From an uncultured Chloroflexia bacterium (GTDB taxonomy: Bacteria; Chloroflexota; Anaerolineae; JAAYZQ01): 64,000 nt of DNA. This document shows positions 40,605-52,561 of this stretch, piece by piece. Under the pieces are notes generated by a model. That model was given only the letters and a program-made list of their open reading frames with translations, searched no databases and was not told the DNA's origin. Positions within the stretch are counted from its first letter, which is position 1. The number at the start of each line of letters is the position of its first letter. The stretch covers positions 64,001 to 128,000 of the forward strand of contig CAVOXA010000005.1 of the NCBI GenBank assembly GCA_963700285.1. The letters are read 5' to 3'. A program made the translations under genes and the position numbers.

Positions 40605-42224
40605 GTGAACGATACCGGCGCGGGTGCCCTGGCAAGCAAGGCCCCGCGCCGTTTCATTGACGGCGATTTTACCTTGGATAAGCGGAAGCTTCCCTGGGTG
40701 GTTCTGGGACTGGCCCTGCTAGCCTTTGCGCTGCGGGTCATCGGTCTCGAGTTCCAGAGCTTGTGGCGGGACGAAGTGGATGCCATCCGGTTCGCCAGCC
40801 GGCCAATGCTCGACTTGTTGGGGACCCTTACTGCACCCGCTGAAAATGGCCCTCTTTTCTACTTATTGTTGCGTTGGTGGTTGCGCCTGGCTGGGCAGAG
40901 CGAGTTTGGCCTCCGTTTCTTTTCCGTATTCTTTGGTGTATTGACCATCCCCCTGATCTACAATTTGGCACGGCGGCTGTTTCCGTCGCTGCCTGGCGTT
41001 GCCCTGGTGGCCGCGCTCCTGGCATCCACCTCCCCCTATTTGGTCTGGTACAGCCAGGAAGGCAAGATGTACGCCTTGGTGGTCACTCTGATTCTAGTGT
41101 CAATGGACCGCTACCTTGCTGCCCTGGAGGACGGGGGATGGTTTCGCTGGCTGGCCTACTTGGTCGCTACCGCTTTGGCCCTGTACGTGCATGTGCTTGC
41201 AGCACTCATGATTCCTGTGCAAGTGGTCGTCTTTTTTCTCCAGGAACGCGGGGTTCGAAAGGCCCGCTGGCGACCCTGGCTTGTGAGTCTACTGATAATG
41301 GCATTGCCTTACTTGCCGCTTCTGGCGTGGCAGGTGCCGCTTATGCTAACACCCGCCCAGACAGGTTTCCGTTTTGTTGCACTGCACGAGATGCTCCTGT
41401 CGCTCTGGGGCAGCTATAGCTTCGGGATAGCCCAAAACGCTGGTCTTTGGATAGGAGTTGGTTTTGTGGGCGCATTGGTTGGCTCCTTCCAGCTCTGGCC
41501 CTTGGACAAACGCGGGCGTGTGTCTCTGGGCGCCCTGGCCTGCTGGCTATTCTTGCCAGTTCTCTTGCTCTTCCTGATCACGTTGGTACGGCCTCTCTAC
41601 ACGGCCAGATATCTTGTCTTTGTTCTGCCAGCATACCTCCTGCTGTTGGCAGCGGGTGTCGTGGCCATTGGACGGCGGACGCACCTGCTGGCTGGGGTCC
41701 TGCTGATCGCCCTGCTTGCTGTGAGCGGCCGGGGGCTTTGGCTTCAGTCCCGAAGCCAGATCAAGGCCGACTTTCGATCAGCGACGGCGTACGTGTTGAA
41801 CAATGCCGGGCCCGACGATCTGCTCCTGTTCCAGATTCCATACGGACGGTACTCTTTTGACTACTATGTACAGCGGCTGGCCATGCCGCAGACCGTCCGG
41901 CATCAGACTGACGGGAATCTCGCTCTCCATGGCGGCGCGGCCCATCGGGCCTACATCCCGCTGCTGGCGGGAAGGGCTGGGTCGGCATACCAGTGGGCCG
42001 AAGGACTGTATACCAACGCCGGGATGTCTGAGAGCGAAGCAGACAGGCGCATGGCAGAGATGGCTGGCCGCAGCCCTGTCGTGTGGCTGCTATCCAGCGA
42101 GTCAGCCATGTGGGATGAACGGGGTCTGGTTGAAGGCTGGCTTGACCAACATGGGGACCTGACTGACACGGTGCACTATGTCCGGGTTTCGGTATACCGC
42201 TACGAGCTTGCCCAAAACCAATGA
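40605..42224 (+). CDS. GT-C membrane glycosyltransferase (PMT/ArnT-like)
   Basis: SLWRDE, PLFYLLL, LRFFS and YSQEGKMY motifs; many TM helices. Confidence 0.85.
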   Translation: MNDTGAGALASKAPRRFIDGDFTLDKRKLPWVVLGLALLAFALRVIGLEFQSLWRDEVDAIRFASRPMLDLLGTLTAPAENGPLFYLLLRWWLRLAGQSEFGLRFFSVFFGVLTIPLIYNLARRLFPSLPGVALVAALLASTSPYLVWYSQEGKMYALVVTLILVSMDRYLAALEDGGWFRWLAYLVATALALYVHVLAALMIPVQVVVFFLQERGVRKARWRPWLVSLLIMALPYLPLLAWQVPLMLTPAQTGFRFVALHEMLLSLWGSYSFGIAQNAGLWIGVGFVGALVGSFQLWPLDKRGRVSLGALACWLFLPVLLLFLITLVRPLYTARYLVFVLPAYLLLLAAGVVAIGRRTHLLAGVLLIALLAVSGRGLWLQSRSQIKADFRSATAYVLNNAGPDDLLLFQIPYGRYSFDYYVQRLAMPQTVRHQTDGNLALHGGAAHRAYIPLLAGRAGSAYQWAEGLYTNAGMSESEADRRMAEMAGRSPVVWLLSSESAMWDERGLVEGWLDQHGDLTDTVHYVRVSVYRYELAQNQ

Positions 42225-42236
42225 TCCTGCGGCGAC

Positions 42237-42265
42237 TTGACAAAGCCTGGATTTCATGTTATCCT
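42237..42265 (+). promoter_or_regulatory. Sigma70 promoter of the Prx-Grx gene
   Basis: TTGACA-17 bp-TATCCT with extended TG; AGGAGG at 42293-42298. Confidence 0.7.
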
Positions 42266-42304
42266 CCACGAAATTTACGAAAATAGACGAGAAGGAGGTA
42301 GGGT

Positions 42305-43069
42305 ATGAAGATCCAAGTTGGTGAGGAGGCCCCTTCTTTCGAGCTGAAGAGCCACCTGCAAGACACGGTCAGACTAGACGAGTACCGGGGCAAGCACAAC
42401 GTGCTGATTGTATTCTTTCCCTGGGCCTGGACCCCCGTTTGAACGAACCAGATGCCTTCGTATGAACTTGACCTGTTCAAGTTCGAGGGCTACAATACCC
42501 AGGTCCTGGGTATCAGCATTGATCATGTTCACACTCTGAGGGCATGGGCCGAGAGCCTTGGGGGCATCAGCTACCCACTGTTGAGCGATTTCTGGCCACA
42601 TGGCGAGATGGCGCGCAAGTATGGCGTGTTCCGGGAGGACGGAAGGAGCGAACGCGCCCTGTTCATCGTCGATAAGGAAGGCATCGTCCGCTACATAGAC
42701 GTCCACGATATCGATGAGCAGCCGGACAATGAGGAGGTGTTCAAGGTTCTGCGCCAACTGGAACCCGATGCCGTCGTTCAAGAGCCGGTAGAAACAGGGG
42801 TAGCCGAAGCGGGGCCAAGTCCAGCAAGTTCTCAGAGCGTGGTGTTGTATTGCCGGCCCGGCTGTATTGACTGTCGCCTCTCCCGGCGTTTTTTGGAGCG
42901 AAACGGGATAGCCTACACCGAGGTCAACGTCCGCGCCGACGCAGAGGCAGAAGCACGGGTTCTGGAGTGGACTGGCGGCCAGCTTGTCTCGCCGGTATTT
43001 GACATCGGCGGCACCATCGTGATTGATTTCAAACGATCTGAGTTGATGCGGGTACTTGGCCTGGACTAG
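42305..43069 (+). CDS. Selenocysteine peroxiredoxin (AhpE/BCP-like) fused to a glutaredoxin/NrdH domain; TGA 42440-42442 read as Sec
   Basis: MKIQVGEEAPSFELK...FFPWAWTPV-TGA-TNQM is in frame with ORF 42452; LLSDF, ERALFIVD; C-terminal CIDC. Confidence 0.88.
42454..42490 (+). promoter_or_regulatory. Bacterial SECIS-like hairpin
   Basis: GCCTTC/GAGGGC lower stem, GAACTTGA/TCAAGTTC upper stem, loop CCTGT; starts 11 nt after TGA. Confidence 0.65.
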
Positions 43070-43287
43070 GTCGCCGCGCAACTGTAGATAGCAGCCTATG
43101 CAACTCTGGGTCATCTGCCCAGAGTTGCTTGGTTGTGTGGGCCCTGGTTGGCCTGCGGACTTGTCGCAGGGCCATCGATCCGGCCCCCCTCGCGGCAGCG
43201 CGTAGCGAGTTTGCCAGATTCGCCAATCAGGGCTATAATAGCCAGGTCCTTAGGAAAAAGATCAAATCGGCAGGTTACGGCGATATT

Positions 43288-44367
43288 ATGCGAGAAATCA
43301 CTGACTCTCAATCGAAGGGAACCGAGAACGAGATTCCAGGCGGTAGAGCAGCGAGCCGCCCAGGCCGGCTCTTGATCACCTTGATGGTCGTTCTCCTGCT
43401 GTTGCCTGTGTTGGCAGCCTGTGGTAAGGACGGGGAAACGGAGGAATCGGGTGATTCGGGTGAAGTGGCGACGCTGCCTGCCGCCGAGGAGCGGAGGGCA
43501 ACGCCGTCGCCCATCTCCGTGATCGATGCGACGGCCACTGTGGCGCCGACGGCTACGCCGACCGTTGGCCCACCCCCCGCTCCCCTTGCTGCGATGGTCA
43601 ACGGCCGGTACATCTTTTTGGAGGACTATGAGCATCTGTTGGCCCTCTATGAGCAGGCGATTCAGGAGCAAGGCATCGACCTGGATTCGGAGGAGGGGCA
43701 GGCTGAACTAGCTCTGGTACGCATCGATGCGCTCGAGGCGCTGATCGATTCCGAGTTGATGCGCGAAGAGGGCGAGGCGCTGGGGCTGACGCTGAGCGAA
43801 GAGGAAATAGAGGCCCAGGTCGAGATTGATATCGACGACGGGGGCGGACAGCAAGCCTTTGACGAATGGTTGGCGGCTACTGGGCAGACTCGCGCTGACT
43901 ATACGGAAATGCTGCGCGACTTGCTGCTGTCGGAGCGCATTCTGGAGCTTGTCGCTGCCGACTTGCCAATGGTGGCAGACCAGGTCCACATTCGGCACAT
44001 TGCAGTAAGCAGCGAGGCTGAGGCCCAGGAGATCTTGGCACAGATCCAGCAGGGGGCTGATTTTACAGAACTGGCTCGCTCATGGTCGGTAGACACGATG
44101 ACCAAGGATGAAGGTGGCGATCTGGGTTGGATCCCGGCCGGCATCGTGGATCCGGAACTGGAACGTGCGGCCTTTGCCTTGCAGGTGGGCGAAACCAGCG
44201 GGGCTATCCAGCTTGGAGACGGATATCACGTTATACAGGTGGTGGGGCGAGAAGCCGACCGTCCAGTGTCACCGGATCTCCAGATAGACCTTGAGATGGC
44301 CGCATTTGAGCAGTGGCTCAAAGATCTGCGTGCCGCTGCCGTGATCGAGCGGTTTGTAGGCGAATAG
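43288..44367 (+). CDS. SurA/PrsA-like parvulin foldase lipoprotein
   Basis: LAAC lipobox, VHIRHI, FTELARSWSVD, GGDLGW, GYHVI. Confidence 0.88.
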   Translation: MREITDSQSKGTENEIPGGRAASRPGRLLITLMVVLLLLPVLAACGKDGETEESGDSGEVATLPAAEERRATPSPISVIDATATVAPTATPTVGPPPAPLAAMVNGRYIFLEDYEHLLALYEQAIQEQGIDLDSEEGQAELALVRIDALEALIDSELMREEGEALGLTLSEEEIEAQVEIDIDDGGGQQAFDEWLAATGQTRADYTEMLRDLLLSERILELVAADLPMVADQVHIRHIAVSSEAEAQEILAQIQQGADFTELARSWSVDTMTKDEGGDLGWIPAGIVDPELERAAFALQVGETSGAIQLGDGYHVIQVVGREADRPVSPDLQIDLEMAAFEQWLKDLRAAAVIERFVGE

Positions 44368-49532: not shown

Positions 49533-52500
49533 GTGAGCCGTGAGAATGGGCACCTTGGGCTTGGGTTGCTCCTTGGGTTTGGGCTAGCGGTGGGGCTTGC
49601 TCTGTCTGCGGTAGGCATCTGGCTGTGGCCGGTTTCGGGAACGAGGGATGCTGGCCCTCCTGCGATGGGCTCCGCTGCATCTGACAAGTCGCTGGGTGTC
49701 AACGCTGACCTTAGTTCTTACGATACGAAGGCGAGGACAGAAGCGCTGGCGGCGATGGAGGCTGCTGGCCTCCGCTGGCTGCGACTCCGCTTCCCCTGGG
49801 ACGCCATTGAGCCTGAACATGGACGTCTACGATTGGGCCATTTGGGACGAGATCGTTGGGGACGCCAGGCGACATGGTCTTCAAATCGTTGCGGTGCTCG
49901 ATGGTTCGCCTTCGTGGGCGCGGGGAGGAGGCGGATGGCGAGAACCCATTGGCTCCGCCCGTGGAGGCACGTGATTTCGGGGATTTTGCCTTTGCCTTTG
50001 CGAATCGCTATCGCGATCAGATCGATCACTATCAGATTTGGGATGAGCCCAACATCGCCCCGCATTGGGGCGCGAGGGAGATCGATCCGGCGGCCTATGC
50101 CGGCTTGCTGCGCGAAGGGTCCATCCGGATTCGCAGCGCTGATCCTGAAGCTGTGGTCCTGACTGCCGCCCTGGCGCCCAACGTGGAGCCGGGCGGTGCG
50201 AATATGAGCGATTTGCTCTTTCTCGGGGAACTTTACCAACAGGGTGCTGCCGAGTGGTCAGATGGTGTGGCCGCCCAGATCTACGATCTCGATGGCCAGC
50301 CAGAGGCGCCCGCGGACTCGGAGCGACTGAACTGGAAGCGGATCGAATTGCTACGCCGGGTCATGGAATTGCAGGGGGACAAAGAGACTCCGGTGTGGGC
50401 GGTGACTGTTGGCCGAAACACTGCGCTCGCGGGCGACCTTGCGGCCGCCATAGAGACTGCGCGCGAGGACTGGCCCTGGCTGGGACCGATGGTCTGGGCT
50501 GCCTGGTCGCCCAGCGACACCCGAGGCCAGTTTGCTCTGGTCGATGAACGCGCCCAGCCCCGTCCGGCTCTCGATGCTCTGCACGACCTGGCCGTGGCGT
50601 TGCCGGTGGCCTGGCCAGGCACGTACAGAGCGGATCACGAAAGCGGGCGCTACGACGGCGCCTGGCGCGTGACGCCATTCGGGGCGGACATTGGACGCAG
50701 CGGCGACCGCTTGACCATTCCCTTTTGGGGCACGCGCCTGGATCTGGCCGTCCGCCGGGGAGCATACAGAGCTTTCCTATTTGTGACCGTGGACGGGCAA
50801 CCAGCCAGCGCACTGCCGCAAGATGCGGATGGCAATGCCTACGTCGTCCTGTACGATCCCCTGGGCAATGCCAATAGCGTCACGCTGGCACGCGGCTTGC
50901 GGGACGGCCGGCACGAGGCCGAGATCGTGGCTGACCGCGGTTGGGGTCAATGGGCCATCACCGGCTGGACTGTCGCGCGAGAGACTGCCAGTCGCCTGCC
51001 GTGGCAGGGGTTGCCGGCGCTCCTGGGACTGGCTGCACTGGCGACTCTGGGCCTGGTGCTGAGGCGAGCCTGGCCCCAGTGGCGTTCCCTCGTTGCGACC
51101 GGTACTGAACTGACGAACCGGTACCAGGACATTGACGCTCGCCTGATGTTGGCTGTCACAACGGGGGCCATGATCCTGGCTTACGTGGCAGCCGGGACCA
51201 TCCCCAGCCTGATTACCCTTGGCCTGTTGGCCGGGCTTTTGCTGCTGCGCCCAGGGACGGGCCTGCCGCTCATTGCCGTGACGCTGCCCTTCTACCAGTT
51301 GGGCAAGCCGTTGCTGGGCAAAGTGTTCTCTATGGTCGAGATCCTGACCCTACTCACGGCGGCGGGCTGGTTTGCGAATTGGTTCCTGGGCGCTTTGCGC
51401 GCGGCAAGGGGACGGGCTCTTGGAGGTACTGACTCCGAGGGCGTGCCAGACCAACCGCGCATGTTCGTCTCCACCCCACATTTCAGCGCTATCGACTGGG
51501 GGGTCATTGCCCTGGTCATGGTAGGGATGGCATCCTTGCTATGGGCCGAGCACGTTCGGGTGGCCGCCCGGGAGTTTCGAACCGTGATCCTGGGAGCGGC
51601 ACTTTTCTATGGGTTGTTGCGAGCCATGGCCCAAGGCCGGCGGGCAGTCTGGCGCGTCGCAGATTCTTGGGTGCTGGGCGCTGCCCTGGTCGCGCTGGTG
51701 GGCCTCGCCCAGTGGGTCTTGGGCCAGAATCTGATCACTGCTGATGGCATCTCTCGGGTTCGGGCATACTATGGTTCACCGAATAACCTTGCGCTATACC
51801 TGGGGCGGGTATTGCCCTTGGTCCTGGTGATCTCTGTTTGGGCCAGGCGGCAGCCCCGCAAATGGGCGTACGGGCTTGCTGCGGCTGCCATGGCGGCCAC
51901 GCTCCTGCTGACCTTTTCTCGGGGTGCGTGGCTGGTGGGCGTGCCTGTTTCGCTGCTCTTTGTGGCGGGTATGCGGGGCCGGCGGTCTTTTGTTCTGACT
52001 GCAGGCTTTCTGATAGTCGCCGCGGTGGCCATGCTTTTGTTTGTGGGACCCGGCAGGCTGACCCTGTTACTGGATCCGGCGCAAGATACGACCTTGATTC
52101 GGGTTCAGTTGTGGCGGTCCAGTTGGGCCATGATCCGAGATCATCCTGTGCTGGGCGTGGGGCTGGACAACTTTTTGTACCAGTACAGGACCCACTATGT
52201 GCTGCCCACAGCCTGGGAGGAGTTTAACCTGTCCCATCCTCACAACCTCGTGCTCGATGGCTGGTTGAGGCTGGGATTGCCAGGCCTGGCAGTGTTTGGC
52301 TGGTTGCTGGTGGCCTTTTTCCGAGATGGATGGCTGGCCTATCGTCACTTGCCCGAGAGTGGGGAACGGCTCCTGGTATTGGGCTTGATAGGCGGCATGG
52401 TGTACGCGGTGGCCCATGGGCTGATCGACAACTCGTTCTTTCTTGTCGACCTGGCCTACGTTTTCATGTTGATGCTGGCAGTCCTTCAAGGAACCCTTGA

Positions 52501-52561
52501 GATTGCAGGGGGCACCACGGACAGAGGTAGGGCGGGCAACGTCCTATCTCCCAAGAACTAA
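49533..52561 (+). CDS. Clan GH-A-like barrel fused to an O-antigen ligase-like (Wzy_C) domain; frameshifts near 49820 and 49925
   Basis: WLRLRFPWDAIEP, YQIWDEPN; later YGSPNNLA, TFSRGAW, GVGLDNF, HPHN. Confidence 0.8.

Follow-up and report, generated by a model that had tools for sequence, protein, structure and literature searches.

Selenocysteine (Sec) containing peroxiredoxins (Prx) with a PF00578 domain and a TxxU motif are an established family, of which PrxU of Eubacterium acidaminophilum is the prototype (PMC13188914; this and the other papers cited by number are drawn on in part). Hybrids of a Prx5-type peroxiredoxin and a glutaredoxin (Grx) are documented (PMC8113037), and other Prx fusions are listed in the GOS paper (PMC2398784). 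The consensus bacterial Sec insertion sequence (SECIS) has a loop of 3–9 nucleotides (nt), a stem of 4–16 bp, a G early in the loop, an energy of -7.5 kcal/mol or lower and a spacing of 16–37 nt from the UGA (PMC13188914), early meaning here within the first two loop positions. In BSepDB, 87.4% of the entries have a canonical SECIS and 12.6% do not, the missing models being an open problem (PMC13326102); atypical SECIS are also reported as missed in the case of deep-Sep (PMC12013277). The gene described here lies at 42305..43069 of the window, which is the whole stretch of 64,000 nt from an uncultured Chloroflexia bacterium that was analysed. It is held with reasonable confidence to encode a Sec-containing peroxiredoxin of the AhpE type fused to a three-Cys redoxin. 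The UGA would very likely be read as Sec. A hairpin at 60 nt likely directs this, and the fused domain would probably recycle the oxidised selenium with electrons from thioredoxin reductase (TrxR). The product belongs to a known selenoprotein family and is very probably translated; its arrangement of domains is uncharacterised, and its recoding signal falls outside the rule as published. The features of the gene are as follows.

42293..42298, + strand: Shine-Dalgarno sequence AGGAGG, read from the sequence
42305..43069, + strand: coding sequence of 254 amino acids (aa) with TGA as Sec, for an AhpE-type peroxiredoxin, a linker and a redoxin; ATG at 42305, TAG at 43067-43069
42305..42766, + strand: AhpE-subfamily peroxiredoxin domain, residues 1-154 (P39, T43, U46, R117), from sequence and structure matches to M. 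tuberculosis AhpE
42440..42442, + strand: in-frame TGA, codon 46, predicted to give Sec46 as the peroxidatic residue; pairs with the Cys of AhpE in the alignment; TGA in 32 + 20 homologous genes
42454..42490, + strand: hairpin 1, proposed spacer, 37 nt, starting 12 nt after the UGA; minimum free energy structure, z -3.0
42495..42513, + strand: hairpin 2, proposed SelB-binding SECIS, 8-bp stem; GUN loop at 42503-42505, 60 nt after the UGA
42533..42535, + strand: Thr77, Cys in most relatives; an independent contig with exact match bears out codons 76-77
42767..42829, + strand: Pro/Ala/Glu-rich linker, residues 155-175, variable in length and sequence, with the lowest model confidence (pLDDT)
42830..43066, + strand: NrdH/Cp9/BC3987-like redoxin domain, residues 176-254, with Pro230, from profile and structure comparison
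42851..42874, + strand: C183-x3-C187-x2-C190 motif, invariant in 120/120 homologues, from alignment to 3ZIJ/3ZIT

An earlier note on this DNA had described a promoter-like site, an AGGAGG, an ATG at 42305 and a 254-aa frame with a TGA as codon 46, at the peroxidatic position of PxxxTxxC. All of these are present, and the TGA (context PWAWTPV-U-TNQ) aligns to the peroxidatic Cys of AhpE. The peroxiredoxin N-terminus is, as stated there, missed by the track of open reading frames (ORFs), which holds just a 205-aa piece beginning at ATG 42452. This ATG was rejected as the start; residue 50 is Met in 18 of 50 TGA genes and Ile in 32. On the 254-aa reading, Pfam identifies AhpC-TSA at residues 5–131 (117 bits, cut-off 26) and Glutaredoxin (PF00462) at residues 179–237 (40.2 bits, cut-off 22.9).

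The homologue alignment for Cys/TGA pairing that was proposed at the same time gives a clear result. Among 60 relatives and GTDB contigs, TGA is found at the peroxidatic position in 32 distinct homologous genes, 20 of them fused and 12 stand-alone, and TGC or TGT in 11. These counts cover matches of at least 36% identity and exclude L042, which has a TAC codon and a broken frame. A later search added 20 TGA genes and one TGT gene, giving 52 distinct TGA genes; these are related sequences, and as a caution against the reading the counts overstate their independence. Of 301 sampled genomes of the class, 28 have the fusion gene; 27 of these copies carry a single in-frame TGA, and the remaining one has TGT. 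The TGA genes are mostly from Chloroflexota, but are also found in Acidobacteriota and Bacillota bins, and the fusion is retained across Anaerolineae families. The best 120 matches in the protein collection are all products of 200–215 aa starting 3' of the TGA, and many are named glutaredoxin. On these comparisons Sec is almost certainly inserted at codon 46 in the family, and very likely so in this strain. Contigs identical to parts of the gene are found in two RNA-library runs, the exact ones covering 42285-42435 and 42463-42612, with the TGA codon bridged only by contigs of relatives; such contigs do not separate RNA from DNA.

Two hairpins follow the UGA, of which the second has the properties of a SECIS. 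It has a GUC loop and an energy of -10.2 kcal/mol, and its loop size, stem length, G position and energy all agree with the consensus; the one departure is the distance from UGA to loop, at 60 nt rather than 16–37 nt. Over the 32 TGA genes 98.8% of its cells are paired, with two-sided (compensatory) change in four of the eight pairs. The hairpin is perfect in 29 of the 32, against 0.81 expected by synonymous recoding, and in none of the 11 Cys genes. Of the 20 held-out TGA genes, 16 have a perfect hairpin 2 and 19 keep seven or more of its eight pairs. The natural TGT fusion (L122) retains the peptide, while its hairpin 2 is down to 5/8 pairs. The GUN loop is invariant in 50 of 50 TGA genes. 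There is good reason to believe that SelB would bind hairpin 2 via this loop.

The distance of 60 nt may be explained by hairpin 1. The 42 nt from +11 to hairpin 2 have a median energy of -17.0 kcal/mol in the TGA genes, compared with -9.0 when shuffled and -7.5 in the Cys genes. The effective unpaired linker is 11–16 nt in all 32 TGA genes and 13–15 nt in all 20 held-out genes, compared with 12–32 nt in the 11 Cys genes. A similar layout is present in the selD genes of the class (L080-L095 and L013), where 10–45 nt after the TGA a hairpin of 4–6 bp is followed by a GGCGCA(G/C/A)-GTN hairpin. The loop of this second hairpin is 33 nt from the UGA in 17 of 18 loci, L079 having instead a single hairpin at 17 nt; the raw linker is 26 nt and the effective linker 10–14 nt in 17 of the 18. 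Hairpin 2 also agrees with the SelD hairpin in its CAG-GTN-CTG top. The PrxU paralogue of the same lineage has a hairpin at 17–18 nt (15 of 19 loci by the strict rule) and none at 60 nt despite a similar peptide, and the other TGA candidates of the genome have hairpins at 17–33 nt. On balance, hairpin 1 would form where the mRNA enters the ribosome and loop out its 37 nt, leaving an effective distance of 11–16 nt. A wider proposal, judged only slightly better than even, is that SelB reads a SECIS 60 nt away via a spacer hairpin. What is conserved would then be an unpaired linker of ~10–16 nt and not the raw distance, and the SelD layout would suggest a general two-hairpin class covering part of the ~13% without a canonical SECIS. 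The enzyme served would be an uncharacterised Sec-AhpE with a built-in three-Cys redoxin fed by TrxR.

The peroxiredoxin domain belongs with AhpE by sequence and by structure. M. tuberculosis AhpE is the top PDB sequence match (E 2e-29, 38% identity), the next subfamily following at 4e-22. It is also the top Foldseek match (TM 0.94, root mean square deviation 1.3 Å) and has a VIA-align Z of 27.0 against 24.1 for the next subfamily; the Prx5 domain of PGdx has a Z of 16.7 at 22% identity. The structure searches were made on an AlphaFold model with Cys in place of Sec (mean pLDDT 92.9, pTM 0.87). The PxxxTxxU motif and the catalytic Arg are present (P39, T43, TGA46 and R117), and R117 is invariant in 52 sequences. 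The PrxU profile NF040737 scores 62 bits, below its cut-off of 270, and a separate PrxU-like gene of the same genome is located on contig C10.

The only Cys residues of the 254-aa protein are at 183, 187 and 190, and the claim of the earlier note that the peroxiredoxin domain has no other Cys is therefore true for this copy. Its description as a 1-Sec peroxidase fits this copy but not the family. Cys77 is present in 107 of the 120 close homologues (the best 120 protein matches) and in 16/20 and 18/20 of the fused TGA genes of the first and later sets, as against 7 of 104 Cys-type representatives. A less likely reading, for which this frequency speaks, is that Cys77 is the resolving Cys in most members. 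Sec46 and Cys77 would then form a selenenylsulfide to be reduced by the redoxin, as in an atypical 2-Cys type, with this copy a degenerate 1-Sec exception. In the model the residue stands at the start of helix 75–84, and the resolving Cys of Tpx and some PrxQ is in helix alpha3 (PMC4749874). The same source places the resolving Cys of AhpE in alpha5, and at several places in the tree T, A, S or V stands at residue 77 instead. In that tree, in which the bootstrap is not settled and the deep branches are left uninterpreted, the Thr77 copy is the sister of a Cys77 gene and lies inside the Cys77 group. In its position, residue 77 is presumably akin to the interface residue Cys83 of human PRDX1, which is non-catalytic. 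Because this copy and 12 other close homologues are without Cys77, it would not be needed for the core cycle. By sequence comparison this copy is truly in a 1-Sec state, but a derived one, and members of the family can do without Cys77.

The preferred reading, in which the oxidised selenium is recycled by the fused domain, depends on the redoxin. The note had called this a NrdH/Grx-like CxxC domain; the NrdH likeness holds, but it is probably not of the glutathione type and has three invariant Cys, the CxxxCxxC motif being retained also in all 27 fused genes of the later sample. The CxxC is CIDC here, not of the CPYC type, and CGDC, CPAC, CPDC or CSDC in distant members. The closest solved relatives are B. 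cereus BC3987, the Grx of PDB 7C10 (presumably from A. oremlandii) and NrdH-redoxins. Cys183 aligns with Thr8 of BC3987. The NrdH/Cp9 motif [IV]-x-[ILV]-[YF]-[ST]-x3-CxxC (PMC3720550) is departed from here, with VVLY-C having Cys for Ser/Thr. From the conserved Pro54/Gly65/Phe66 of the NrdH/Cp9/BC3987 redoxins the Pro and Phe are retained and the Gly is Asp. The domain is below the NCBIfam cut-offs of TIGR02194 (35.8 of 85.75 bits), TIGR02196 (51.1 of 88.55) and TIGR02200 (35.7 of 89.5). From these sequence features it is probably not a glutathione-type glutaredoxin.

The genes for low molecular weight thiols point in the same direction. No gshB (PF02955) was found in this genome, with two weak matches among 15 incomplete genomes, and gshA (PF04262) was found in none of five incomplete genomes; other gshA types, other routes and uptake were not searched for. 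Neither bshC nor, above cut-off, mshC was found in any of the 15 incomplete genomes. A profile search of this one genome found trxB above cut-off. TrxR is the likely donor, since no genes for glutathione, mycothiol or bacillithiol synthesis were found and trxB is present. Recycling by the fused domain with TrxR can be inferred. The partnership of the two domains is also favoured by the retention of the fusion across Anaerolineae families and by the existence of Cys-form and separately placed AhpE-redoxin fusions.

In established peroxiredoxin chemistry the peroxidatic residue reduces the hydroperoxide. It is proposed here that UGA46 would be decoded as Sec, with SelB bound at hairpin 2 and hairpin 1 looped out, and that the Sec46 selenolate would reduce the hydroperoxide, generating selenenic acid. 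Cys187 would likely attack this, in cis or across subunits, and Cys190 would resolve the mixed selenenylsulfide, with Cys183 tuning or relaying at the buried cysteine. NADPH-dependent TrxR would then, somewhat less surely, re-reduce C187-C190, by analogy with C. pasteurianum Cp34/Cp9/Cp20.

Three points weigh against this cycle. Twelve of the 32 Sec genes and most Cys AhpE have no redoxin domain, which means that reduction can be achieved in other ways. In M. tuberculosis, AhpE receives its electrons via mycothiol/Mrx1 or from H2S (PMC8113037), not from a dithiol redoxin alone. The host genome is 89% complete, and the absence of a thiol pathway is thus not proven. It is conceivable, if unlikely, that the redoxin is not the recycler, the peroxiredoxin being reduced by H2S, as is that of M. 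tuberculosis (PMC8113037), or by a small thiol, as the existence of stand-alone Sec-AhpE genes would allow. The CxxxCxxC, in which three invariant Cys exceed what a dithiol needs, would then bind a metal or Fe-S cluster, or relay oxidising equivalents outward as a peroxide sensor. A tuning role for C183 is sufficient to account for the third Cys, however, as it occupies the Thr position that in BC3987/NrdH hydrogen-bonds the buried Cys and, in BC3987, aids catalysis (PMC3720550). Other AhpE-redoxin fusions are without a Cys at the C183 position. The domain has the fold of an active redoxin and the Pro that goes with it (Pro230). Of the characterised classes the Cp9-type redoxins are nearest; these reduce peroxiredoxins, and their genes are located between those for TrxR and Prx (PMC3720550).

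The assignment of the SECIS to hairpin 2 has a competitor in hairpin 1, the loop of which is about 27–29 nt from the UGA and so within the canonical range. If hairpin 1 were the SelB site, hairpin 2 could serve in pausing, mRNA protection or the like. A G at spacing 27 recurs near the hairpin 1 top in 40 of 50 TGA genes, often opening its loop, and hairpin 1 has 80% of its cells paired and two-sided change in four of seven pairs. Its register varies, however, and its loop sequence is not conserved. A contiguous stem reaching -7.5 kcal/mol is found in only one of 32 genes, seven have no stem, and the G at spacing 27 is paired in this copy. With the invariant GUN loop (50/50), SelD-like top and decay in the TGT form all belonging to hairpin 2, this exchange of roles is quite unlikely. 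Two results count against the spacer role proposed for hairpin 1. The RNAalifold consensus consists of hairpin 2 alone, hairpin 1 being absent from it. Applied genome-wide, the hairpin-plus-linker rule does not discriminate between stop codons, selecting 28 of 1002 TGA, 29 of 1347 TAG and 7 of 229 TAA candidates, and it was dropped as a gene finder. A pattern search of the whole genome for CAG-GTN-CTG hairpins at a distance gave 61 matches and was likewise rejected as unspecific. Rfam searched over 42200-43300 at E up to 1 gave no match.

The Sec machinery was expected by the note elsewhere in the genome. There, selA and the tRNA-Sec (TCA anticodon) are intact, and selB and selD, the latter with its own TGA, are present but frameshifted in the assembly, as follows.

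G000 C9:56688-57628: selD (L013), two single-base insertions in short homopolymer runs
G000 C10:2126954-2128870: selB (L011), one single-base insertion in a short homopolymer run

Neither these frameshifts nor a non-canonical SECIS had been mentioned in the note. The family could consist of selenoproteins and this strain still be losing Sec decoding, with the gene yielding just a truncated peptide of 45 residues. What weighs in that direction is, first, that the reading frame is broken three times within two of the three Sec protein genes, when the background is low (of 48 test loci 5 were flagged, 2 of these being selD itself). To this are added the lack of any intact SelD found to be identical to that of this strain (the best being 97% over a middle piece) and the sister genome G001 (90% complete), in which selA is present and selD was not found. 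Cys77 has also been lost in this copy. All three breaks are, on the other hand, single extra bases in short homopolymer runs, and in the case of selB exactly that base is missing in 26 of 26 relatives compared. At the second selD break a 96%-alike contig from another run is one base shorter (gap position not given), and a 447-nt contig just past selD, otherwise identical, has a one-base difference from the assembly. The intact selA and tRNA-Sec, and about ten other TGA genes that retain hairpins, also argue for working decoding. Full-length selD is present in 11 of the 13 other fusion-bearing genomes, with a fragment in a twelfth. The breaks are probably assembly errors, likely from long reads, and only a small chance is left for real decay and the loss of Sec decoding.

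That the TGA is instead a sequencing error, a nonsense mutation or a true stop between a short ORF and a 205-aa 'glutaredoxin' might be supposed from the database annotation of the downstream piece and from the indel errors of the assembly, but the chance of this is negligible, the idea being refuted by the same TGA in 52 distinct genes across phyla and by the 45 N-terminal codons, which encode conserved AhpE sequence and are preceded by a promoter-like site and a Shine-Dalgarno sequence. In 32 of 50 genes, moreover, Ile takes the place of the internal Met.

Further in-frame TGA candidates are present in the genome. Those with G-loop hairpins at 17–28 nt are at G000 C1:68252, C1:1379605, C1:1070216, C6:137650, C7:68812, C9:167613, C10:292051, C10:1161571, C14:582079, C15:122711 and C22:54040. 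From their motifs, with no hidden Markov model check, these 11 are taken to be FdhA (two), Grx, a C-GCAxxG-C-C protein, HdrA, DUF3179, DsbA, PrxU, a UshA-like protein, a PrdB-like protein and MvhD. In G016, G006 and G007, selD-family matches without TGA (L076-L078) lie in frames of 750–770 aa and represent long fused SelD forms; a normal selD of the TGA type is present in addition in G006 and G007.

The family includes several variants of the arrangement. Cys-form fusions are P0141 (51% identical, known as protein sequence only), L122 (TGT) and the members of a separate branch, in which the third Cys is missing. In L122 (G195:C45) residue 77 is Thr and hairpin 2 has decayed, although selA and selB are still present in the genome. 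The separate branch (P0181, P0224, P0231 and P0269) has a Cys AhpE-like domain with a CxxC redoxin and is possibly an independent fusion. A search among shorter proteins gave 19 redoxin-only pieces, which may be parts of larger genes. Two stand-alone Sec-AhpE (L030 and L031) have an N-terminal hydrophobic stretch and a Cys resembling a lipoprotein signal, and are possibly exported selenoperoxidases. Another Sec-AhpE branch (L033 and L069-L072) has PFAFTA(T/L)U and a Cys in an S-C-D motif just ahead of helix alpha3.

The signals that flank the gene are as follows.

42237..42265, + strand: sigma-70-type promoter-like site TTGACA-17-TG-TATCCT, 10/12 consensus matches; by consensus match only
43100..43138, + strand: terminator-like stem-loop; by consensus match only
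43211-43239, + strand: separate promoter-like site ahead of the next gene; by consensus match only

There are four promoter-like sites of the quality of the first in 1.2 kb, compared with 0.7 in shuffles. From the flanking promoter-like sites and the terminator-like stem, the Sec-peroxiredoxin gene is probably transcribed alone. An internal promoter-like TTGACC-17-TACAAT at 42468-42496, which overlaps both hairpins, was rejected as probable chance, its -35 part not being conserved. Among the neighbouring genes of the 11 closest and 6 distant loci there is no redox partner, and neither trxB nor nrdIEF adjoins the gene described here. In 10 of the 11 closest loci there is a SurA/PpiC gene downstream, the eleventh being at a contig edge, and a PMT-type glycosyltransferase is usually found upstream; all six distant loci have different neighbours. 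Elsewhere in the window, the overlapping same-strand ORFs at 49533-50162 and 49856-52561 look like one frameshifted gene, which from its translation is glycoside-hydrolase/O-antigen-ligase-like.

A peroxidase common in the Anaerolineae is invisible to annotation, because every one of the best 120 database matches is truncated at the TGA and many bear the name 'glutaredoxin'. For enzymology the family provides a natural series, in which residue 46 is Sec or Cys, residue 77 is Cys or Thr and the redoxin is fused or absent, and in which the contribution of selenium to AhpE can be tested. The same series bears on the recycling of a peroxiredoxin that has no resolving Cys where neither glutathione nor mycothiol is available. 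For translation, a SECIS that violates the published spacing rule gives a sharp, testable prediction, and it is the layout of the SECIS that most merits experiment.

The note had regarded Sec-peroxiredoxins and Cys-form Prx-Grx hybrids as each known and their combination as not known to be characterised. The former is correct, and in the open-access literature no description was found of a Sec-AhpE-redoxin fusion or of a spacer-hairpin SECIS; the correction to be made is that Cys forms of this fusion exist. There is no Prx-redoxin fusion in the portion covered of the 119-family table of PMC13188914, and the word AhpE is absent from its text.

The hybrid Prx5-Grx of Haemophilus influenzae (PGdx, 1NM3) has, as here, an N-terminal peroxiredoxin and a C-terminal redoxin in one chain. 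PGdx is glutathione-dependent and is a Cys enzyme of the Prx5 subfamily, whereas the gene described here combines AhpE with Sec. It has in common with the Sec-peroxiredoxin family the PF00578 domain, the PxxxTxxU motif and the UGA at the peroxidatic position. It differs from the AhpC-like PrxU in its AhpE subfamily, its fused redoxin and a SECIS at 60 nt rather than 17–18 nt. With M. tuberculosis AhpE (Rv2238c; 1XXU, 4X0X, 5ID2) it shares the single peroxidatic residue, Thr 76/77 and Arg116/117. It has Sec for the Cys of that enzyme and a fused redoxin, and with no mshC above cut-off it would not use the mycothiol/Mrx1 route. C. pasteurianum Cp34/Cp9/Cp20 and BC3987/NrdH (PMC3720550) resemble it in the redoxin of glutaredoxin fold, the TrxR-like reductant and the peroxiredoxin client, the last two being presumed here. 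Unlike Cp9, BC3987 and NrdH, the redoxin is here fused to the peroxiredoxin, with Cys for Thr/Ser four residues before the CxxC and Asp-Phe for Gly-Phe. The proposed SECIS itself has the 8-bp stem, 3-nt loop and N1-G-U-N-N2 of the consensus bacterial element (PMC13188914), and departs from it in the spacing of 60 nt and the intervening hairpin.

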